Positions 13,156-47,316 of a stretch of DNA of 64,000 bases are shown one piece after another; position 1 is the first letter of the stretch, and each line of letters opens with the position of its first letter. This DNA is from Candidatus Rifleibacteriota bacterium (GTDB lineage: Bacteria; Muiribacteriota; Ozemobacteria; Ozemobacterales; Ozemobacteraceae). The position numbers and the translations under genes were made by a program. The stretch lies in the NCBI GenBank assembly GCA_012520995.1, contig JAAYNI010000010.1:7671-71670 (forward strand). Reading direction: 5' to 3'. The notes under the pieces are model-generated. The model was not told where the DNA came from, did not search any database, and worked only from the letters and a program-made list of their open reading frames with translations.

Positions 13156-13509
13156 ATGTCATCAAATTTAACTATAAATCATAGAACTGAAGGCGATGTC
13201 TGCGTTATAGTTCCTTCCGGTTATCTGGACGACCATGGCGGAGAAGTCCTGTTGGACTTCATTGAAAGCCAAATCAATCTTGGATATAAATTCTTCGTTA
13301 TTGATTTTACGGGAACCCCTGTAATTAACTCGCAAGGGATAGCCCACCTTCTGGAAACAACAGAAATAGTAGCAGACGAAATTGCAGGAGCCATAGGTTT
13401 TACCGGTCTTACCCAGCTCTCTTACAATGTATTCCAGATGATAGGCCTTCTTCAAATGGGCACTTATTACCAAACACCTGATGAAGCCATAGCAGGAGTA
13501 ATTGAATAA
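13156..13509 (+). CDS. STAS-domain protein / anti-sigma-factor antagonist (SpoIIAA-like)
   Basis: 117 aa with a STAS-like pattern (VCVIVPSGYLDDHGGEVLLDFIE...FVIDFTGTPVINSQGIAHLLE). Confidence 0.65.
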   Translation: MSSNLTINHRTEGDVCVIVPSGYLDDHGGEVLLDFIESQINLGYKFFVIDFTGTPVINSQGIAHLLETTEIVADEIAGAIGFTGLTQLSYNVFQMIGLLQMGTYYQTPDEAIAGVIE

Positions 13510-13538: not shown

Positions 13539-15641
13539 ATGCAAACAGCCAACTCCTATCATTCTGGCCACTTCCGGAAGAAAAGCGGTTTTATTTTAGC
13601 AATTGTATTAGTTGCCGGTTTTTTCTTAGTAATATTGGCAACCGCAATTTACTTTCTCACTTCATCCAACCGCGTCAACATCAGCAGAATATTAAACGGA
13701 GAGAAAGCCCATTTAGCGGCAGAAGCTGCATTGAGCTTCGCCATAGCCGACTTGCGCAAAGAAATAATTAAAATAGGCGAGGGAAGAGCCAACCAAAATC
13801 TTCTAGAACTTCTTCTGCAACCCGGAGCGATAGAAAACAAAGAAATAACCGGCTATATTTCCTTTGATAAAATGGACAGTCTAAACCGCCATTTCAGACA
13901 GCATGATCCTGACACCTCCACCGCAATTAAAATATACATAGAACAGCTTCACTTAACTGAAACAGATCCTTCAAGATGGAATGACCCCGCAGTCAAAAAA
14001 GGATTGATAAAAATAGAAGCAAAAGCCAGATGTAAAGGTTCTGAAAGAAGTATCTCTGTTATAAGATCCATAAATGTGGCGAATATCTTGCCTGGTCCTT
14101 TGTCCAAGTTCACCTTTTTCATGAAAAAGAATAAAGAGAACTCACAAGGACAATTCAATCTTATTAAAAATGATTATCAGGGTGACAATACAAACGGTCC
14201 CAGACCCTTGATTCTTTATAATCACAGACTACCGGAACATGGCGCAGATCTTAACGAGATTCTTTCTGAAGAAAAAAAAATAGATATATGGCAAAAGCGC
14301 GGATGGGTGAGCTTGAGCGACTCCACAACTGTTCTTAATCTCTGTTCAGGAGCTGGCAAATATGGAGAAGTATTTCAATTTTATGAAATAAAAAATACTC
14401 TAGACTTTCAACCTGTAAAATTTGAAACTCCAAAAAGCGATTTGCCCCCTAAGTTCTCGCAAACTTTAACATTGCCTTGGGACAAGGCACATCAGAGCAT
14501 AAAAATGATGGATTACAATTTTTCCCATCATTATGTCTTGGACGGCTTTCATGACAAAAGCTCCAGAAAAAACACAAACGCTATGTATGAAGGCAACATA
14601 CTGTCCAGCGATGAGATGAACCGTTACGGATCCGCTTCTTCAATACTGCATCTTTACGGTGACACTCGGTTGGGTTATCAATCACGAACAAAAGTATTCG
14701 GCAGAGTTTATTCGGCTTTCATACGTTTTGCAAATCTGGAAGTCGAACCGACAGATTCATTTTTAAAAAGCACTCTAAACAGCGTTTCTCCTCCTCCCGT
14801 ATATCTGCTCCCATCAAAAAGTCCCTTTGAATACACCCCCGCTCTGGACATCACAGAATTTTTAAACAGAACTATAGGCGGTCCTATTTTAAAAGCGGGA
14901 AACCTGTTTAACTCCTACAAAGAATATATGAATTTTATGAGCCGCATAATAATGCAGCCTTACAATACTTCCTATAATATAATGCAAGATGTCTATAATA
15001 GAACATACCCAAGAACTTTCCCAACTAGAACATCTATAGTGCCTGACTTCCCCAACAGAAATATCACCCTCTCAAAAAACGACTTCACATATTTTTCAGG
15101 AATCCCATCTCTTGAAGGAACAGCTGAGCTAATGAAAAGCAGAGCGACTCACAAAGTGAAAACGATTGCAGACTTCAAGGAAAAATTCTTTAATAACAAT
15201 AATGACTTGGAACTCAACGAGATATTGATTATAGAAAACCTTGAAAACAAGACCCTATATTTACCGCCAGACAGCACCTCGGGTACTATGAGAGTCAAAG
15301 CAGGCGGAGCTATAATTCTTGAAAGAGGCCAACTGGTTTTAGGCGGAATTAAAATGGAAAATCCTAGCGATTCCTTAACCTTGGTAAAAATGTCGCCAGG
15401 AACAATTGCATTTACCTCTTCAAGTCCAGTTCAAGCCAACATCATAGCCCCCAACTCTTCTTTGGGTTATACAAGCTATTTTTCACTTCATGGCACTCTC
15501 GGAATAGAGACTGTTATCCCTGAAAATAACTTTCGAGGCGGAGAAATTTGCTTTAACTGCGATCAAGATCCGACTCAAGAGGGCTATGAGAAATATTATA
15601 GAATATACTTAGGTAAAAATGACAGCTACTATATTAAATAG
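13539..15641 (+). CDS. large PilX-N-like (type IV pilus minor pilin/tip-associated) protein
   Basis: An N-terminal hydrophobic segment is followed by ...KAHLAAEAALSFAIADL, matching the PilX_N pattern (GxAL...AEAG). It sits directly upstream of two prepilin-like genes. Confidence 0.5.
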   Translation: MQTANSYHSGHFRKKSGFILAIVLVAGFFLVILATAIYFLTSSNRVNISRILNGEKAHLAAEAALSFAIADLRKEIIKIGEGRANQNLLELLLQPGAIENKEITGYISFDKMDSLNRHFRQHDPDTSTAIKIYIEQLHLTETDPSRWNDPAVKKGLIKIEAKARCKGSERSISVIRSINVANILPGPLSKFTFFMKKNKENSQGQFNLIKNDYQGDNTNGPRPLILYNHRLPEHGADLNEILSEEKKIDIWQKRGWVSLSDSTTVLNLCSGAGKYGEVFQFYEIKNTLDFQPVKFETPKSDLPPKFSQTLTLPWDKAHQSIKMMDYNFSHHYVLDGFHDKSSRKNTNAMYEGNILSSDEMNRYGSASSILHLYGDTRLGYQSRTKVFGRVYSAFIRFANLEVEPTDSFLKSTLNSVSPPPVYLLPSKSPFEYTPALDITEFLNRTIGGPILKAGNLFNSYKEYMNFMSRIIMQPYNTSYNIMQDVYNRTYPRTFPTRTSIVPDFPNRNITLSKNDFTYFSGIPSLEGTAELMKSRATHKVKTIADFKEKFFNNNNDLELNEILIIENLENKTLYLPPDSTSGTMRVKAGGAIILERGQLVLGGIKMENPSDSLTLVKMSPGTIAFTSSSPVQANIIAPNSSLGYTSYFSLHGTLGIETVIPENNFRGGEICFNCDQDPTQEGYEKYYRIYLGKNDSYYIK

Positions 15642-16107
15642 CAAACTTCAAAATGCCTTTGCTAAACGTTCTTCCTTAAGAACGCTTAAAAAGAGGCAGA
15701 CTGCTTTTTCATTGACTGAGCTTTTAATTGCAATGGTCATACTGGAATTGATTCTTCTGCCCATTACAATAACCTTTTCAACAAGCAGCAAAAATATCTC
15801 TGTCTCCGAACAAGCCTTCATCAAGCATCTACGAGCCTTAGAAATAACAGAACAAATAATAGCTCTCGACTTCAATGTAATTCCCTTGGGACATTTTGAT
15901 GATGACAACTTGAAAGAAGGAATCAAGCTTAACAACGACATTAAATATATGCTTCACTTGACTGATTCTCCTGGATTGCTGAGAGAACTCTCAATTGAAG
16001 CAGACTCATCAAATAACTTCAAATCTATTAAGATAACAATTAAAAGCCAAAGCAATGATGAAAAACCATTTGTTTTGGTCACAATAAAAGCGAACGAAAA
16101 TGCTTAA
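15619..16107 (+). CDS. prepilin-type (type IV pilin/pseudopilin-like) protein with a non-canonical cleavage motif
   Basis: The N-terminus reads KKRQTA|FSLTELLIAMVILE, a class-III leader with Glu at +5 and Phe at +1 but Ala at -1 instead of Gly. It overlaps the upstream gene by 23 nt. Confidence 0.55.
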   Translation: MTATILNSKLQNAFAKRSSLRTLKKRQTAFSLTELLIAMVILELILLPITITFSTSSKNISVSEQAFIKHLRALEITEQIIALDFNVIPLGHFDDDNLKEGIKLNNDIKYMLHLTDSPGLLRELSIEADSSNNFKSIKITIKSQSNDEKPFVLVTIKANENA

Positions 16108-16663
16108 ACCTCTTAAAAATAAAGCCTTTACCCTAACAGAGCTCTTGGTAACTGTAGCTATTACTGGAATTCTGATGACAACTCTTTATTCATTATTCTC
16201 TGCCATGACAAGAAACTATAGTAAGCAGGAATCCTCAAACAAAGCTCTTCAAGAGACTTCACTTTTCATGGCTCAATTAAGGCAAGACATAAACAACGCA
16301 ATTTTCTATGACTCTCTTTTGCCTCAAGAAACACAGTTCTCATCTGAAAACGGGGAGCTCAACTTCAAAATTTATGACAACCACACAGGCAACACAGAAG
16401 AGATATTTTACAAAGTCATACAAAGCGGCAACGAAATAAAGGTTATTCGCACTTTTCAACACAAAGAAAAAGCCTTTGAAACAGAGTCCTTTGAAAGCCT
16501 GCAAATGGATTTTAAATTTTCAGAAAAACAGACTGAAGGCGAAGAAACCCTCTATTCACCCTTAGCTCTCCATGTTCAGCTCAAGGCTGTACAAAAAAAA
16601 GGGAAGGACTTTATATTTAATACTTATTTAGTGCCTATAAGAGCTAACCGCCAACTACTTTAA
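16100..16663 (+). CDS. prepilin-type (type IV pilin/pseudopilin-like) protein
   Basis: The N-terminus reads LKNKA|FTLTELLVTVAITGILM (F+1, E+5, Ala at -1). It overlaps the upstream gene by 8 nt. Confidence 0.6.
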   Translation: MLKPLKNKAFTLTELLVTVAITGILMTTLYSLFSAMTRNYSKQESSNKALQETSLFMAQLRQDINNAIFYDSLLPQETQFSSENGELNFKIYDNHTGNTEEIFYKVIQSGNEIKVIRTFQHKEKAFETESFESLQMDFKFSEKQTEGEETLYSPLALHVQLKAVQKKGKDFIFNTYLVPIRANRQLL

Positions 16664-16765
16664 AAACAGTGGGCAGTGATCAGTGCACCGTGGGCAGAGA
16701 GAACAACGGACAGGACTATTTTGTTCTAAACAATTTCACTGTCCACTATCCACCATCCACTGCAC
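16664..16765. repeat. post-stop-codon intergenic repeat (family shared with 63809-63875)
   Basis: aaaaacagtgggcagtgatcagtgc...ttgttctaaacaatt begins immediately after the TAA of the pilin gene. The related sequence aaaaacagtggtcagtgg...ttgtttagaac follows the TAA at 63808. It contains the hairpin ggacag...ctgtcc. Confidence 0.3.
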
Positions 16766-16841
16766 ACTGAATTTATATTGGCATTTGTTGAAAATTTAAT
16801 TATAATTATTATGTAGAGATGTACAGAAAAAGGAAAGCCGC

Positions 16842-18467
16842 ATGAAAAAAACAATCAGCATAATGCTCTTTTTAGCTTTAATGCTCTTTAATACATATAA
16901 TTATTATCTTTGGGCAGACGAAATCCCTCCCTCATATAAAGAAGGAGAAACTCAAGAAACAACTCCTCCTGCTCAACAAGAGGGAGAAAAAGATGAAAAC
17001 CAAGAAGGGGAGACACAGCCGCCAGAAGATATAACACCTCCCCCCACTCCCGTCACCCCGCCTAAACCTCCAAAACCGCCTCTGACACCCGAACAAGAGA
17101 TTTTTGAAGAATATGGAGTTATCTTCAAATCTGAATCAAAGATTCTCTCTTGGGATACTTCTAAAGTTCAAGCTATAAAAGAAGTTCTTGAATCTGTGCC
17201 CAAAAGCTTTTCATCTTCCACGAAAGTCTTCTATCTTCTCTCCACTTACGAACAATTCGAAATCAAATACAATGGCTTTAATCGCGAATTTGGAGTGGTT
17301 CAATTTGGAGCAGGGGCTCTTGAAGCCTCAAGACCTTACAATATAAAGTTTAAAAATGTCTATGGCTCAGAACCATCCACCACGGACTTGATAAACAGAT
17401 TTAAGGCCATGGCCGCAAGAGGCATGACCTATGCTTATCTCCAAGAAAACCCAGAAATCCCCAGAAAATACAGAGGAGTTCTGAAAAACAGAAACTTCTC
17501 TGAAGTTACCAAGCTTTATGGGCCAGCACAAGAAACCTATATGGTTGTAGCTCCCGGCAAAGACGATATGTGGATAGACTTGGCCTTCGCTGTTGAGATG
17601 TATTTAACAAATCAGGGCGAGCTTAGCTCAATTTGCCCGGAAAGAGCCAAATTTGTAAAAGAAGAAATTTTCGGAGGGGAAACAGTCAAGACTTGGCCAT
17701 ATAAACCTTTACATAAAAAAATAGACCAACCCTCTGTCAATCCCGATCCAAATCCCGATCCAAATCCCGATCCTAATCCCGATCCTAATCCCGATCCAAA
17801 TCCCGATCCTAATCCCAATCCTAATCCCGATCCTAATCCCGATCCTAATCCCGATCCTAATCCCAATCCTAATCCCGATCCTAATCCTAATCCCGATCCT
17901 AATCCCAATCCCAATCCTAATCCCTCTCAAGGCAGCAGATATGTTTTGGAACCATTAAACACAAACAATCCTGGTCCTCCCGTAGAAGAGGAACAAGATG
18001 GGCAACCCTATATTCCTGAAATAGCTGTAATTCAGCAAGGAGGAGCGCTAGACTTGCCTGGAGGCATGAATGAAGCAATAATCGATCTCTGTAAACAGCT
18101 GAATGTTTCTTTCAGCGGCTCAACCGCTGCAATCGGCTATTTAACAACCATTGACACAAAAGATGCCTTTTCACGTGAAAGCTACATATTTGTAACCCAG
18201 AATTCTTGGCATCCATTCTTAGACTCTGAGCGCACAAAAAGATTCCAAGAGATTCTCTTGAGAGAAATGGCTTTCAGATATGCTTATCACAAGGCAGATG
18301 TACTTATAAAGTGGAAACGAGACTTTTCTATGGCCAACGACTATGATGCAATTAACAGTTTTGCAGAAACGGTAATAATGTACATGAACGCTCCTGGACA
18401 TCTGCAAACAATAAACGAAGATCGTTATAAGTTCCTGACAAATGAAGTTAAGCTGAAAAGACCCTGA
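16842..18467 (+). CDS. secreted protein with a Pro-rich N-terminal region and a central (NPDP)n repeat linker
   Basis: Signal peptide MKKTISIMLFLALMLF. Residues 300-360 are almost pure DPNPDPNP... repeats. The flanking domains are unrecognised. Confidence 0.65.
   Translation: MKKTISIMLFLALMLFNTYNYYLWADEIPPSYKEGETQETTPPAQQEGEKDENQEGETQPPEDITPPPTPVTPPKPPKPPLTPEQEIFEEYGVIFKSESKILSWDTSKVQAIKEVLESVPKSFSSSTKVFYLLSTYEQFEIKYNGFNREFGVVQFGAGALEASRPYNIKFKNVYGSEPSTTDLINRFKAMAARGMTYAYLQENPEIPRKYRGVLKNRNFSEVTKLYGPAQETYMVVAPGKDDMWIDLAFAVEMYLTNQGELSSICPERAKFVKEEIFGGETVKTWPYKPLHKKIDQPSVNPDPNPDPNPDPNPDPNPDPNPDPNPNPNPDPNPDPNPDPNPNPNPDPNPNPDPNPNPNPNPSQGSRYVLEPLNTNNPGPPVEEEQDGQPYIPEIAVIQQGGALDLPGGMNEAIIDLCKQLNVSFSGSTAAIGYLTTIDTKDAFSRESYIFVTQNSWHPFLDSERTKRFQEILLREMAFRYAYHKADVLIKWKRDFSMANDYDAINSFAETVIMYMNAPGHLQTINEDRYKFLTNEVKLKRP
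17738..17923 (+). repeat. perfect or near-perfect hexanucleotide tandem repeat (aatccc / gatccw / aatcct), about 31 units, in frame within the 16842 CDS
   Basis: Read directly from the sequence. The units encode the N-P and D-P dipeptides. Confidence 0.9.
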
Positions 18468-33921: not shown

Positions 33922-35442
33922 TTATAAATTAATGGGTTTATATTGTTCAAAAAGTTTTTTGTCGAAGGCTCTCATGTAGGCTTCAACAGGAGCTATTCTC
34001 CTTTGCTTGACCAAGTCCATCAAAGACTGATCCATCGTTTGCATTCCTTGTTGCTTGCTGGTTTGCATAATTGAGTTCAGCTGATATGTTTTATTGTCTC
34101 TGATACAGTTTGCAACCGCAGGAATGTTTATAAGTATTTCCAAAGCTGCGACTCGGGAAGATCCGTCAAGAGCAGGAATCAACTGCTGAGCTAAAATAGC
34201 ATTTAGCGAATCAGCTAGTTGAGTTCTTATTTGGCTCTGCTGACTTCCCGGGAAAACGTCTACTATTCTTTCAATTGACTGAGGCGCAGAAGGGGTGTGC
34301 AAAGTAGCAAAAACTAGGTGTCCAGTCTCAGCTGCCGTTACAGTCAAAGCTATAGTTTCAAAGTCACGCATTTCGCCCACCAATATTACGTCAGGGTCTT
34401 CGCGCAAGGAAGCTCTTAGAGCATTGCTAAAGTTTTTGGTAGTGCTTCCTACTTCACGCTGACTAACCAAACATTTATTATGAGAATGCACAAACTCAAT
34501 CGGATGCTCAATAGTTATTATATGCTCCTGACGTTCTTTATTAATCAGATCAATCATAGCTGCAAGAGTAGTGGATTTGCCTGAACCTGTCGGACCTGTT
34601 ACAAGCATAAGTCCCTTTTTCCTTCGGGTCAAATCTGCCAGCACAGGAGGCATGCCAAGTTCCTGCAGACTCTTTATTATGTTAGGAATAACTCTGAAAA
34701 CTGCGCCTAAGCCCAACCGCGTGTAAAAAACATTACAGCGAAAGCGTGCCAAGCCATGAATTTCATAAGCCATATCGAGCTCAAGAGTATCTTCCAGTTC
34801 TTCTTTCTGTTCGTTTGTCAAAAAGTTAAAAAGCATTCCTTTAACGTCTGAATCATTCATCACAGGCAAGTCTGTTGCCCAAAGCTTGCCTTGCAAACGA
34901 AGCATAGGAGGAGCGCCAACCGCTATGTGCAAGTCGGAACCGGCTTCAGCGACTACCATCTGCAAAAGATCGTCAATAGTTACTACGGCTTCGCCTCCGC
35001 TGGCACCGTCTTTCTCTGCACCGTAGGTAACGTTGCTTTTACCATCTAAAACCTTGCGAGTGCTAAGAGCAGAGGAGCCTCCCGCACGTCTTGCAGGAGC
35101 CTGTATGGTCGGATAGCCCTGAGCCGTTGCAGGTCTTGCAGGAGCCTGTATGGTCGGATAGCCCTGAGCCGTTGCAGGTCTTGCGGGTTGCAATGGTCTT
35201 CCCGCTTGAGCCGGCATAGGTCTATTAGGAGCAGCAGCAGCCGGTCTTGCGCCTTGAGAAGGAACAGAAGTTGCCGGCGCAGGTCTTCTAGGCGTTATAC
35301 TCTGCGGAGCCAAATTAGCAAGGTCATCAAAATTTGGCGTTGCCTGTATGGCTGGTCTCTGCTGCGAGTTCGCCTGTACATCCGTTTGGGGATCTTTTCT
35401 TTCTTCCTTCGAACCGAAGAATTTTCCTATAATATTATCCAT
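33922..35442 (-). CDS. pilT: type IV pilus retraction ATPase PilT with a roughly 180-aa Pro/Ala-rich N-terminal extension
   Basis: Walker A GPTGSGKSTT, LHTPSAPQSIERIVD, and the PilT-specific ...NCIRDNKTYQLNSIMQTSKQQGMQTMDQSL. The N-terminal 180 aa are low complexity. Confidence 0.8.
   Translation of the reverse strand: MDNIIGKFFGSKEERKDPQTDVQANSQQRPAIQATPNFDDLANLAPQSITPRRPAPATSVPSQGARPAAAAPNRPMPAQAGRPLQPARPATAQGYPTIQAPARPATAQGYPTIQAPARRAGGSSALSTRKVLDGKSNVTYGAEKDGASGGEAVVTIDDLLQMVVAEAGSDLHIAVGAPPMLRLQGKLWATDLPVMNDSDVKGMLFNFLTNEQKEELEDTLELDMAYEIHGLARFRCNVFYTRLGLGAVFRVIPNIIKSLQELGMPPVLADLTRRKKGLMLVTGPTGSGKSTTLAAMIDLINKERQEHIITIEHPIEFVHSHNKCLVSQREVGSTTKNFSNALRASLREDPDVILVGEMRDFETIALTVTAAETGHLVFATLHTPSAPQSIERIVDVFPGSQQSQIRTQLADSLNAILAQQLIPALDGSSRVAALEILINIPAVANCIRDNKTYQLNSIMQTSKQQGMQTMDQSLMDLVKQRRIAPVEAYMRAFDKKLFEQYKPINL
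35089..35178. repeat. exact 45-bp tandem duplication (2 units) inside the pilT N-terminal extension
   Basis: The unit tcttgcaggagcctgtatggtcggatagccctgagccgttgcagg occurs twice with 100% identity and encodes PATAQGYPTIQAPAR twice. Confidence 0.9.
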
Positions 35443-35445
35443 CTT

Positions 35446-37101
35446 TTAAAATTGCCTCATGAATTCTTTTGGGGCTATTTCTCCATCCAAGAGAAGTTGC
35501 AAAGCTTGTTCTTCACAACTGCGTATACCTTGTCTTGCTCCATATTCCTTGAGTTTGGAATAGTCGGGAGATTCTATAATAAGTTCTGTCAACTCACTAT
35601 TTATGGGGTAATACTCCAGCAACATCTTTTTGCGCAAATTGCCGGTTGAATTACACTGGGGACAGCCAGTCGGTTCATAAAGTTTGTGTTCCCAATAGTG
35701 TTCAGGCAAATATTTTTTAAGCTCATCCGGAAATTCCACAGGCTTTTTGCAAGCCGGACAAAGAGTTCGCACTAGGCGCTGGTGAGCAAAGCCGCACAAG
35801 GATGAAGCTAAAAGACGGGGATCCACAACTTCCAAGAGTCTGATAACTGAATCACAGGCATCAACCGCTGACAAACTTATAACAACTGTTTTACCGCCTG
35901 CCGCAGAATACGCCAAAAGTTCACAAGAATCGGCATTGTCCTCACAGTCAAGCATTATTACGTCTGCATCTAACTTAACAGCAAGTTTTACTGCATCGTG
36001 AGTTTCGCTGAAACCGTCCGTGCCCACTTTAAGCTGAGTTACCATTGGAACAATAGACTCTATATTCTTTTCTATAGTAACAATCTTGCTGGCCGTAACA
36101 TCAAACTTTTTCAAAAGAATATGCTGAGTTACAGTTTTCCCGGATTCTCCAGGCCCGCTAAGATAAAGAACGCCGCTATTGGCTAAGAGACTTTCCCCCA
36201 AGAGATCAATAGCTTCCCTTGAGGAAGGATCCATGGTATTTACAACATTCTCGACATCTGAAATGCTAATTATGAGACTCTCACTCTCAGCACCTGGATA
36301 AAACATGCAACTGAGATAGGCTCGTTTACCGCTGTTGCTGGACACAACTCTGAAGTGTCCTGAAAGCACTGATTCTGCAGCATCTTCAGGAATATTGGAA
36401 AGCTTTTTCACTCTCTGTAAAATTTCTGAATGAAGCTTAAGGGGAATTTCCAGTTTGGTCATAAGAACGCCATGCTTCCTAAAACGCACAGCAACATTAT
36501 CATCCGATGTTTCAAAATGTATTTTTTCAACCGAAGATGCAAGAGCGTTTGAAAGAATATAGTTCAAAACCTTGTCGGGAGTCTGCAGGTCTTTTTCTGA
36601 TTCAGCATGCATATCTCCTTCACCCAAGGCTTCAATTTGAGGCGGCATGTCTCCATTAGCACTTGCAGACTGTCCATAAAGAAGCGGATAAACAGCTTCA
36701 AAGTCTTTGGCTTTAGCTATAGAAACAGAAACATTAACAGAATATTTTTTTTCCAAATACTCTATTGGCCTGGAATCCAGGGGGTCTGTCATGCAAACAT
36801 TTAACTGATTGCCTGCTCTGTAAAGAGGTATTATGCGATATTGCAAAGCAAACTCAGGGCTAATCATAGGCACAACTTCAGGATCTATTATATCCATGTT
36901 GAGATGTATACATGATAAATTAAGTTGATTGCCTAGCGCCCATATGATGTCATCTTCTGTGACAAAACCAAGCTCTATAAGAGCCTCGCCAAGTCTTATG
37001 TCGTTGGCTTTCTGGTATTTAAGAGCCTCAGCGACCTGTTCGGCCGTTATAAGATTACAGTCTGTCAATATATCGCCTAAGCGTTTTTTTTCGACTGTCA
37101 T
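35446..37101 (-). CDS. type IV pilus assembly / type II secretion ATPase (PilB/GspE family)
   Basis: N-terminal T2SSE_N-like domain (LGDILTDCNLITAEQVAEALKYQ...), a variant Walker A GPGESGKT, and a C-terminal tetracysteine CPAC...CPQC. Confidence 0.8.
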   Translation of the reverse strand: MTVEKKRLGDILTDCNLITAEQVAEALKYQKANDIRLGEALIELGFVTEDDIIWALGNQLNLSCIHLNMDIIDPEVVPMISPEFALQYRIIPLYRAGNQLNVCMTDPLDSRPIEYLEKKYSVNVSVSIAKAKDFEAVYPLLYGQSASANGDMPPQIEALGEGDMHAESEKDLQTPDKVLNYILSNALASSVEKIHFETSDDNVAVRFRKHGVLMTKLEIPLKLHSEILQRVKKLSNIPEDAAESVLSGHFRVVSSNSGKRAYLSCMFYPGAESESLIISISDVENVVNTMDPSSREAIDLLGESLLANSGVLYLSGPGESGKTVTQHILLKKFDVTASKIVTIEKNIESIVPMVTQLKVGTDGFSETHDAVKLAVKLDADVIMLDCEDNADSCELLAYSAAGGKTVVISLSAVDACDSVIRLLEVVDPRLLASSLCGFAHQRLVRTLCPACKKPVEFPDELKKYLPEHYWEHKLYEPTGCPQCNSTGNLRKKMLLEYYPINSELTELIIESPDYSKLKEYGARQGIRSCEEQALQLLLDGEIAPKEFMRQF

Positions 37102-47243: not shown

Positions 47244-47316
47244 GCAAGATTAACTCAATTGGTAGAGTGTCACCCTTCCAAGGTGAAAGTTGCGGGTTCG
47301 AGTCCCGTATCTTGCT
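47244..47316 (+). tRNA. tRNA-Gly (anticodon TCC)
   Basis: Folded by hand. The acceptor stem is gcaagat/atcttgc; the D-stem is actc/gagt with the loop aattggta. The anticodon stem is tcacc/ggtga with loop cTTCCaa, and the T-arm is gcggg-ttcgagt-cccgt. The discriminator is U and no CCA is encoded. Confidence 0.85.

Follow-up and report, generated by a model that had tools for sequence, protein, structure and literature searches.

The 64-kb window analysed here (64,000 nucleotides of contig JAAYNI010000010.1 in assembly GCA_012520995.1, to which all coordinates refer) carries a gene for a 541-aa protein, the middle of which is encoded by a tandem array of hexamers specifying Asn-Pro and Asp-Pro dipeptides (NP/DP array; Table 1). 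The array differs in copy number between contigs that are otherwise nearly identical, and lies between two domains of the protein that are homologous to each other. The proteins encoded around the gene are identical to NLM16318-NLM16331 (NCBI) of a Candidatus Riflebacteria metagenome-assembled genome (MAG), and the locus is found on contigs from metagenomes of biogas fermenters and other digester-type sources. The 541-aa protein matched no family of Pfam or NCBIfam.

Table 1. The array-bearing gene, its parts and its upstream neighbours, in window coordinates (ORF, open reading frame; pLDDT, predicted local distance difference test).
Feature	Position	Strand	Basis or remark
STAS protein	13156-13509	+	Pfam STAS
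700-aa membrane-anchored protein, N-terminal membrane helix	13539-15641	+	
Two prepilin-type N-methylation-motif proteins	15619-16107, 16100-16663	+	Pfam N_methyl
Promoter-like TTGGCA-17-TATAAT (11/12)	16778..16806	+	consensus scan of 178-bp gap 16664-16841
Host gene, 541-aa protein	16842..18467	+	ORF list; family restricted to Candidatus Riflebacteria
Signal-peptide-like N-terminus (MKKTISIMLFLALMLFNTYNYYLWA/DE)	16842..16916	+	sequence reading and hydropathy scan
First disordered Pro/Glu/Thr-rich stretch, residues 26-83	16917..17090	+	homologue alignment gap; pLDDT 33-58
Predicted N-terminal zincin-like pseudo-peptidase domain, residues 84-290	17091..17711	+	hhalign, alignment, pLDDT 85-95
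N domain HExxH-equivalent R193-G194-M195-T196-Y197	17418-17432	+	alignment to HEMTH-bearing relatives
Inter-domain disordered linker, residues 293-388, includes array	17718..18005	+	pLDDT 24-46
NP/DP array, polymorphic copy number	17739..17924	+	31 in-frame hexamers, 12-bp period x 15.5
Longest internal exact repeat	17799..17887	+	exact repeat search; register that would yield the 48-bp deletion of contig L008
Predicted C-terminal zincin-like pseudo-peptidase domain, residues 389-541	18006..18464	+	hhalign, alignment, domain-only model
C domain HExxH-equivalent R474-E475-M476-A477-F478	18261-18275	+	alignment to HEMTH-bearing relatives

The array consists of 31 uninterrupted, head-to-tail hexamers (186 bp): 16 of AATCCC, 8 of GATCCT, 4 of AATCCT and 3 of GATCCA. 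Tandem Repeats Finder described it as 15.5 copies of a period of 12, with 91% matches, no indels and a score of 281, and it is the strongest tandem array of the 64-kb window found by this program. The 12-mer AATCCCGATCCT or a one-mismatch version of it occurs 14 times, all 14 within the array, where shuffled sequences predict 0.25 occurrences. Being in frame with the ORF, the array encodes residues 300-361 (62 aa), in which 20 Asn-Pro and 11 Asp-Pro dipeptides are interleaved. Within it Asn is always encoded by AAT (20/20) and Asp always by GAT (11/11), the rest of the gene using the alternative codons at about 50:50; this uniformity indicates that the tract arose by amplification of a unit at the DNA level and not through independent codon choices. 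An earlier note on this stretch, made by a model from the sequence alone, had placed at 17738-17923 a repeat of hexamers or dodecamers that keeps the frame and encodes an NP/DP linker. The array is real and its coding role holds, with 31 units and 62 residues, while its coordinates had to be moved by one base (17739-17924). Each Asp-Pro unit also makes one GATC site, giving 11 in the 186-bp array; in the window as a whole, GATC is mildly rarer than base composition predicts (174 observed, about 233 expected). Two antisense ORFs across the array (100 aa, GLGS..., and 73 aa, GIRI...) were dismissed as by-products of the repeat.

A look-up of the exact 541-aa protein finds identical lengths only. 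The protein is not in a 15-billion-protein cluster table, and a gene-position index has it on four contigs; further contigs were recovered via exact matches to the neighbouring proteins. With AATCCC written as a, GATCCT as D, AATCCT as b and GATCCA as E, the 31-unit array of the window reads aEaEaDaDaEaDabaDaDaDabaDbaDaaba. Three other assemblies (L001/L006, L002 and L014) have the same string with one synonymous change at 17918. A 42.6-kb contig from another fermenter sample (L007) has 27 units, one abaD block fewer (-24 bp), and encodes a 533-aa protein with three amino-acid differences in its C domain, and GCA_040364315.1 (L013) has 35 units, with aEaE added (+24 bp). One contig end (L008) reads aEaEaDaDaEaDabaDbaDaa, implying 23 units (-48 bp); this allele is probable, and provisional, since it comes from a contig end only. 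Outside the array, the allele-bearing contigs show 0-5 mismatches over 2.5-8.6 kb (at least 99.6% identity).

All length changes are multiples of 24 bp, and the frame is kept in every allele. The L008 deletion matches pairing of the longest exact repeat inside the array, a 41-bp sequence with copies at 17799 and 17847, spaced by 48 bp. In sample ERZ27280794, contigs L008 and L017 have incompatible partial arrays, L017, which enters the array from the opposite side, differing before the unique Dba junction, and this sample therefore probably contains at least two alleles. We did not count a 3′ fragment (L019) as a second 27-unit case, as a one-base variant of the 31-unit array fits it equally well. 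Two flank scans of JGI metagenome contigs gave no extra alleles, the scans having missed a left-flank pattern that JGI contig L009 does contain. As a control, we took a homologue with a non-repetitive linker; in its cluster at 90% identity or more, all 14 full-length members listed are 454 aa long. The array is an in-frame coding variable-number tandem repeat (VNTR, or intragenic minisatellite): its unit is a multiple of three, its units are similar at the DNA level, and its copy number varies with the frame kept. It is not an on/off phase-variation element, the unit being 6 or 12 bp and every observed allele being in frame. This is what the earlier note had expected, namely a change of linker length with the frame preserved; it had also proposed a comparison of copy number, in which 27, 31, 35 and probably 23 units, and not an invariant number, are now found.

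An AlphaFold2 model of the 541-aa protein, built from a 23-sequence alignment, contains two confident domains (residues 83-290 and 393-536, pLDDT mostly 85-95) and two unstructured stretches, residues 26-63 and the array-bearing residues 293-388 (pLDDT 24-46). The array-bearing tract is thus predicted to be a linker between folded domains, as had been supposed, and a variable linker occupies this position in 23 of 23 homologues. When the two domains were compared by hhalign, they matched with a probability of 99.2% (E 8e-20); the N and C domains are homologous, so that the protein consists of two copies of one domain, duplicated internally, on either side of a repeat-bearing linker. A domain-only AlphaFold model of the C domain reached a pLDDT of 83.6 and a predicted template modelling score (pTM) of 0.81, with a fold-search significance not better than that of the full-length model. 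The first disordered stretch, a 58-residue Pro/Glu/Thr-rich insertion, is present only in the window protein among the 23 aligned family members; Tandem Repeats Finder detected no DNA tandem array in it, and it has no indels among the contigs compared.

In the 23 aligned members the inter-domain linker is always at the same position, with 40-167 residues of unrelated low-complexity composition. It is short and G/N/D-rich in Rifleibacterium-type proteins, long and T/D/S-rich in rumen-type proteins, and of the NP/DP type in the window protein only. Several of these linkers are likewise encoded by hexamer or dodecamer DNA repeats, and so are those of the HEMTH zincins encoded next to some members. 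A polar disordered spacer is conserved in the family; the sequence and the length of that spacer are not.

Our homology search with the whole protein was swamped by low-complexity matches to the NP/DP tract (PF05887-bearing and BspA-like proteins) and yielded only 4 true relatives. Repeating the search with linkers cut out gave 26 relatives, all named ones being Riflebacteria (Rifleibacterium, Ozemobacteraceae), and 133 were found when a profile was run exhaustively against 1.84 billion representatives. The matches beyond the two-domain family, retrieved at E values of 1e-13 to 1e-4, are signal-peptide proteins of 250-450 aa in which the domain occurs once; an HExxH motif, mostly HEMTH, is present in 109 of the 120 distant relatives examined. 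In a joint collinear alignment, the HEMTH column corresponds to RGMTY in the N domain and to REMAF in the C domain. The invariant Y-G...E-D-x-A-E-S segment of the relatives aligns with IDLAFA in the N domain and with NSFAET in the C domain, from which the Y-G segment is deleted. Column counts show no HExxH in either domain in any of the 23 two-domain members, and in the two domains of the 541-aa protein equivalents of the third metal ligand (Glu of E-D-x-A-E) and of the Tyr of the Y-G segment are not kept.

The relatives themselves resemble known zincins. In their profile, the SYGNT..EDMAES segment was aligned with SYGRTNEAEFFAEA of anthrax lethal factor, a segment that includes Tyr728 and the zinc ligand Glu735, and their weak Pfam matches, all below curated thresholds, were to Peptidase_M90 (12/40), ATLF (7/40) and DUF6782 (7/40). 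Foldseek searches with both models returned nearly only zincins (PPEP-3, lethal factor, IrrE/PprI, selecase, MtfA-like hydrolase and thermolysin), at a best E of 0.2 and template modelling (TM) scores of at most 0.48, PPEP-3 being the top match of the full-length model. We conclude that both domains appear to be degenerate zincin-like domains, related to the lethal factor/MtfA-like HExxH metallopeptidases. Catalysis has presumably been lost in both, because all three metal ligands are lost, and, as pseudo-peptidase domains, they most likely serve in binding or scaffolding instead. Lethal factor (MEROPS M34, Pfam ATLF, named "N- and C-terminal domain") is comparable, in that its catalytic domain has a degenerate N-terminal counterpart: in both proteins a zincin domain has been duplicated and a metal site lost. 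The single-domain relatives have the HExxH of zincins of the lethal factor and MtfA (Peptidase_M90) type, and their downstream Y-G...E-D-x-A-E segment aligns with lethal factor. Unlike in lethal factor, however, both copies are degenerate in the 541-aa protein, leaving no catalytic domain. This tandem pseudo-zincin family is unannotated and so far restricted to Riflebacteria; the nature of the flanking domains goes beyond the earlier note's reading, and the family is a more novel by-product of the analysis than the array.

The protein starts with MKKTISIMLFLALMLF...LWA/DE, that is, with a basic n-region and a 12-residue hydrophobic core; read by eye and with a hydropathy scan, the signal-peptide-like parts are MKK, then ISIMLFLALMLF, then ...LWA/DE. 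Homologues likewise have MKK and a hydrophobic core, followed by clearer cleavage sites of the ASA/YSA type. From these features we infer that the 541-aa protein is exported via Sec, in line with the earlier note, which had called it secreted. There is no Cys within residues 1-30, and thus no lipobox; the C-terminus (...TNEVKLKRP) is without a sorting motif or a hydrophobic tail; and the Pfam/NCBIfam scan of the protein found no anchoring domain. Riflebacteria are treated as diderms (10.1101/2021.05.31.446380), so that export alone would put the protein in the periplasm. Public annotations disagree on the start codon, some contigs (including L013 and L014) being called from Met8 (MLFLALMLF..., 16863) and not from Met1 (MKKTISIM..., 16842); the Met1 start supplies the MKK n-region common to all homologues.

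The gene stands at the end of a run of genes on the same strand, which includes those for two pseudopilin-like proteins (Table 1). The promoter-like site in the gap upstream of it is a pattern match only, the total number of such sites not exceeding that in shuffles, and Tandem Repeats Finder found no repeat in this gap. A Rifleibacterium-type contig (L024) and contigs of another Riflebacteria MAG (L026/L027) have the same upstream gene order, with proteins 29-44% identical; in all three places the two-domain gene is linked to genes for proteins of 700, about 150 and about 190 aa (N_methyl). In L024 and L026/L027, an intact gene for a HEMTH zincin of 394-398 aa (L024:4789-5985, L026:4798-5982) follows the pseudopilin genes and precedes the two-domain gene by 15-18 bp. 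These zincins have repeat linkers of their own, (TQ)n encoded by 28 copies of ACCCAG in L024 and (TP/KP/AP)n in L026. The window has no HEMTH gene in the gap 16664-16841 and no HEMTH ORF in its 64 kb, and this genome either lost the gene or never had it at that site. Linkage to pseudopilin genes holds for the short-linker subfamily and was not seen on L003/L004; in the subfamily with T/D-rich linkers, the gene is instead preceded by a two-component system, namely a histidine kinase and an OmpR-type response regulator.

We consider it fairly likely that the array is a coding minisatellite prone to slippage or recombination, whose product is a disordered, weakly constrained spacer separating the two pseudo-zincin domains. 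In the inter-domain linker, a unit of 12 bp, AATCCC-GATCCT (Asn-Pro-Asp-Pro), would have been amplified to 15.5 copies. The NP/DP tract would then serve as a spacer through its physical properties: Pro at every second position would block folding, the Asp residues would render the tract acidic, and the two domains would be kept apart on a flexible, probably extended tether. The exact sequence and length of such a tract may be only weakly constrained, and changes in its length nearly neutral. Replication slippage or unequal recombination in 12-, 24- and 48-bp registers could gain or lose blocks of units, the frame being kept because the units are near-identical in DNA and divisible by three in length. 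The outcome would be the 27-, 31-, 35- and probably 23-unit alleles of the near-identical digester populations.

Length variation might itself be selected, the array being an adaptive contingency locus that is kept because it is hypermutable and that serves evasion of phages, predators or competitor proteases, or tunes inter-domain reach. Indeed, in a locus otherwise at least 99.6% identical no feature varies more than the array, at least two alleles apparently occur together in one sample, and a variety of tandem repeats (TQ, TP/KP, TD/TS, GTDP) has been used time and again to rebuild the linkers of orthologues and paralogues. However, variability, coexisting alleles and rebuilt linkers are all equally expected from high slippage on a weakly constrained spacer. 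The variants alter length only, by 8-16 of 62 residues, with composition unchanged, no cell-surface anchoring was detected in the protein, and digesters are without a host immune system; we regard such selection as unlikely. The suggestion in the earlier note that the segment might be antigenically variable is not supported, on the same grounds, the digester habitat having no adaptive immunity and the variants changing length and not composition. A more elaborate possibility, which we hold to be quite unlikely, is a lineage-specific secreted zincin/pseudo-zincin system coupled to the pseudopilus (type II secretion-like) cluster, in which hypermutable tethers (NP/DP in the window protein, TQ, TP/KP and TD/TS in paralogues and orthologues) would adjust how far a decoy or adaptor pseudo-protease reaches, or how sensitive it is to proteases, with diversifying selection acting in digester communities. 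Very unlikely, too, is a role of the linker as a processing site, cleaved by the cognate secreted HEMTH zincin to release the domains, with repeat number setting the number of cleavage sites. The HEMTH gene adjoining the two-domain gene in L024 and L026/L027 would suit such a role, as would the top fold match to the Pro-Pro endopeptidase PPEP-3, given that the substrates of PPEP-1 and PPEP-2 are encoded beside the protease gene (PMC12828418). The window, however, lacks that adjoining gene, PPEPs require a Pro-Pro bond, of which NPDP has none, and the PPEP match (E 0.2) is not specific among zincins. Moreover, the G/N/D-rich and T/D-rich linkers of orthologues have no motif in common with NP/DP.

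The earlier note had also suggested that the repeat might form a stalk presenting the C-terminal domain at a variable distance. This would call for an uncleaved signal anchor, from which the two disordered tracts would project the domains at the cell surface, repeat number setting the distance. The array, however, sits between two homologous, soluble domains and not between a domain and an anchor, and the protein has neither a lipobox nor a C-terminal sorting signal, hydrophobic tail, or wall- or membrane-binding domain. The c-region following the h-region is atypical (NTYNYYLWA), so that cleavage is not certain, but homologues have canonical ASA/YSA cleavage-type sites. Two extended Pro-rich tracts and the position at the end of a pseudopilin gene cluster would fit a stalk; Riflebacteria, though, are treated as diderms (10.1101/2021.05.31.446380), so that an inner-membrane anchor would leave the protein in the periplasm and not on the surface, and we consider a surface stalk very unlikely indeed. 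That the array or its length differences are artefacts, due to collapse or expansion of the repeat in short-read assemblies, is so improbable that we largely discount it. Tandem repeats are a recognised source of assembly error (PMC6868369), many contigs end inside the array (L008-L012, L015 and L017-L019), and the 23-unit allele is among the strings read there. Yet the longest exact internal repeat, 41 bp, is far shorter than the k of 127 or 141 in the names of the array-spanning contigs, and the junction k-mers are therefore presumably read-derived, if the assemblers behave as we suppose. In addition, the 31-unit array is present in four independent assemblies (the window and those of L001/L006, L002 and L014), 4 further similar places are grouped with the 533-aa locus of L007, and all variants are in frame and differ by whole 24-bp blocks.

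Several points nevertheless weigh against the reading of the array as a minisatellite for a weakly constrained spacer between pseudo-zincin domains. Every allele comes from short-read metagenome assemblies, and that of 23 units was seen at a contig end only. Neutrality is assumed, six complete arrays being too few for allele-frequency modelling. The zincin fold matches are individually non-significant, so the pseudo-zincin call depends on sequence profiles, just as the export call depends on the N-terminus as read from sequence. Finally, "spacer" describes the anatomy of the tract more than a demonstrated role.

Classical in-frame VNTRs include the Xr repeats on which spa typing is based, in Staphylococcus aureus protein A (24-bp units), the Ser-Asp repeats of ClfA/ClfB (18 bp) and vrrA of Bacillus anthracis (12 bp). 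Like these, the NP/DP array has short units of a multiple of three with high DNA identity between them, encodes a low-complexity, non-globular segment, and varies in copy number between near-identical strains with the frame kept. Unlike them, it is found in an uncultured diderm of a candidate phylum in anaerobic digesters and not in a pathogen, and the tract joins two soluble homologous domains and, with no anchoring signal, does not span a cell wall. In-frame coding VNTRs in bacterial secreted and surface proteins are described in general terms in the literature (PMC2996958).

Similar tracts also occur in unrelated proteins. X-Pro dipeptides stand between folded domains in the NP/DP/EP linkers of BspA-type proteins with leucine-rich repeats and a Listeria-Bacteroides repeat and of Enterococcus and Carnobacterium proteins, and TonB (EP/KP) and the EP repeats of trypanosome procyclin (PF05887) contain, as the array does, acidic or amide X-Pro dipeptides; the low-complexity Pfam model PF05887 is precomputed on many of the NP/DP/EP-type search matches. 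The flanking domains of the NP/DP/EP-linker proteins are, however, unrelated to those of the window protein, and the likeness is one of composition only. These linkers are a convergent use of one type of spacer and not a sign of homology. The NPDP tetrapeptide is also found among the NANP/NVDP/NPDP repeats of the Plasmodium circumsporozoite protein, which gave the only solved-structure sequence matches to the linker (E 0.005-0.05, in low-complexity columns only). A relationship to that protein was rejected as compositional, with no match outside the repeat (region I, TSR domain). So was an NCBIfam match to "Ig-blocking virulence protein" (E 0.0012; 17.9 bits, the cutoff being 150).

Elements of this kind are already known, in which short in-frame repeats speed the length evolution of disordered linkers well beyond that of the remaining genome; the array is a well-documented case in a candidate phylum that is uncultured. 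With three complete length alleles, and probably a fourth, on contigs whose SNP divergence is under 0.1%, it can be used as a strain marker for the digester Riflebacteria population. It also marks a systematic break point of short-read assemblies, the gene often being truncated in MAG and contig records. Public short-read assemblies break in the array, with contig ends at window positions of about 17768-17870, and Logan contigs stop exactly 30 nt into it; the short k-mers of Logan, which we presume to be about 31, would predict a break at that point. The tandem pseudo-zincin family beside pseudopilin genes, together with the intact HEMTH zincin adjoining it in sister lineages, is a candidate pseudo-enzyme/protease pair.

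Elsewhere in the window, a single tRNA gene at 47244-47316 (+) is the only Rfam match at the gathering threshold. At about 38272 (+), a 250-aa ORF with a HELAH motif (ITHELAHLLEKNH), the only HExxH in window ORFs longer than 150 aa, probably encodes a small metallopeptidase-like protein that is unrelated. Another tandem repeat that is in frame, at 35084-35184 in the gene at 33922-35442 (-), has a 45-bp period and 2.2 copies that are 98% identical. The sequence duplicated by it, RPATAQGYPTIQAPA, belongs to the disordered N-terminal part of a T2SSE-family (PilT/GspE-like) ATPase, and the adjoining gene (35446-37101, -) encodes a second T2SSE ATPase, with an MshEN domain.

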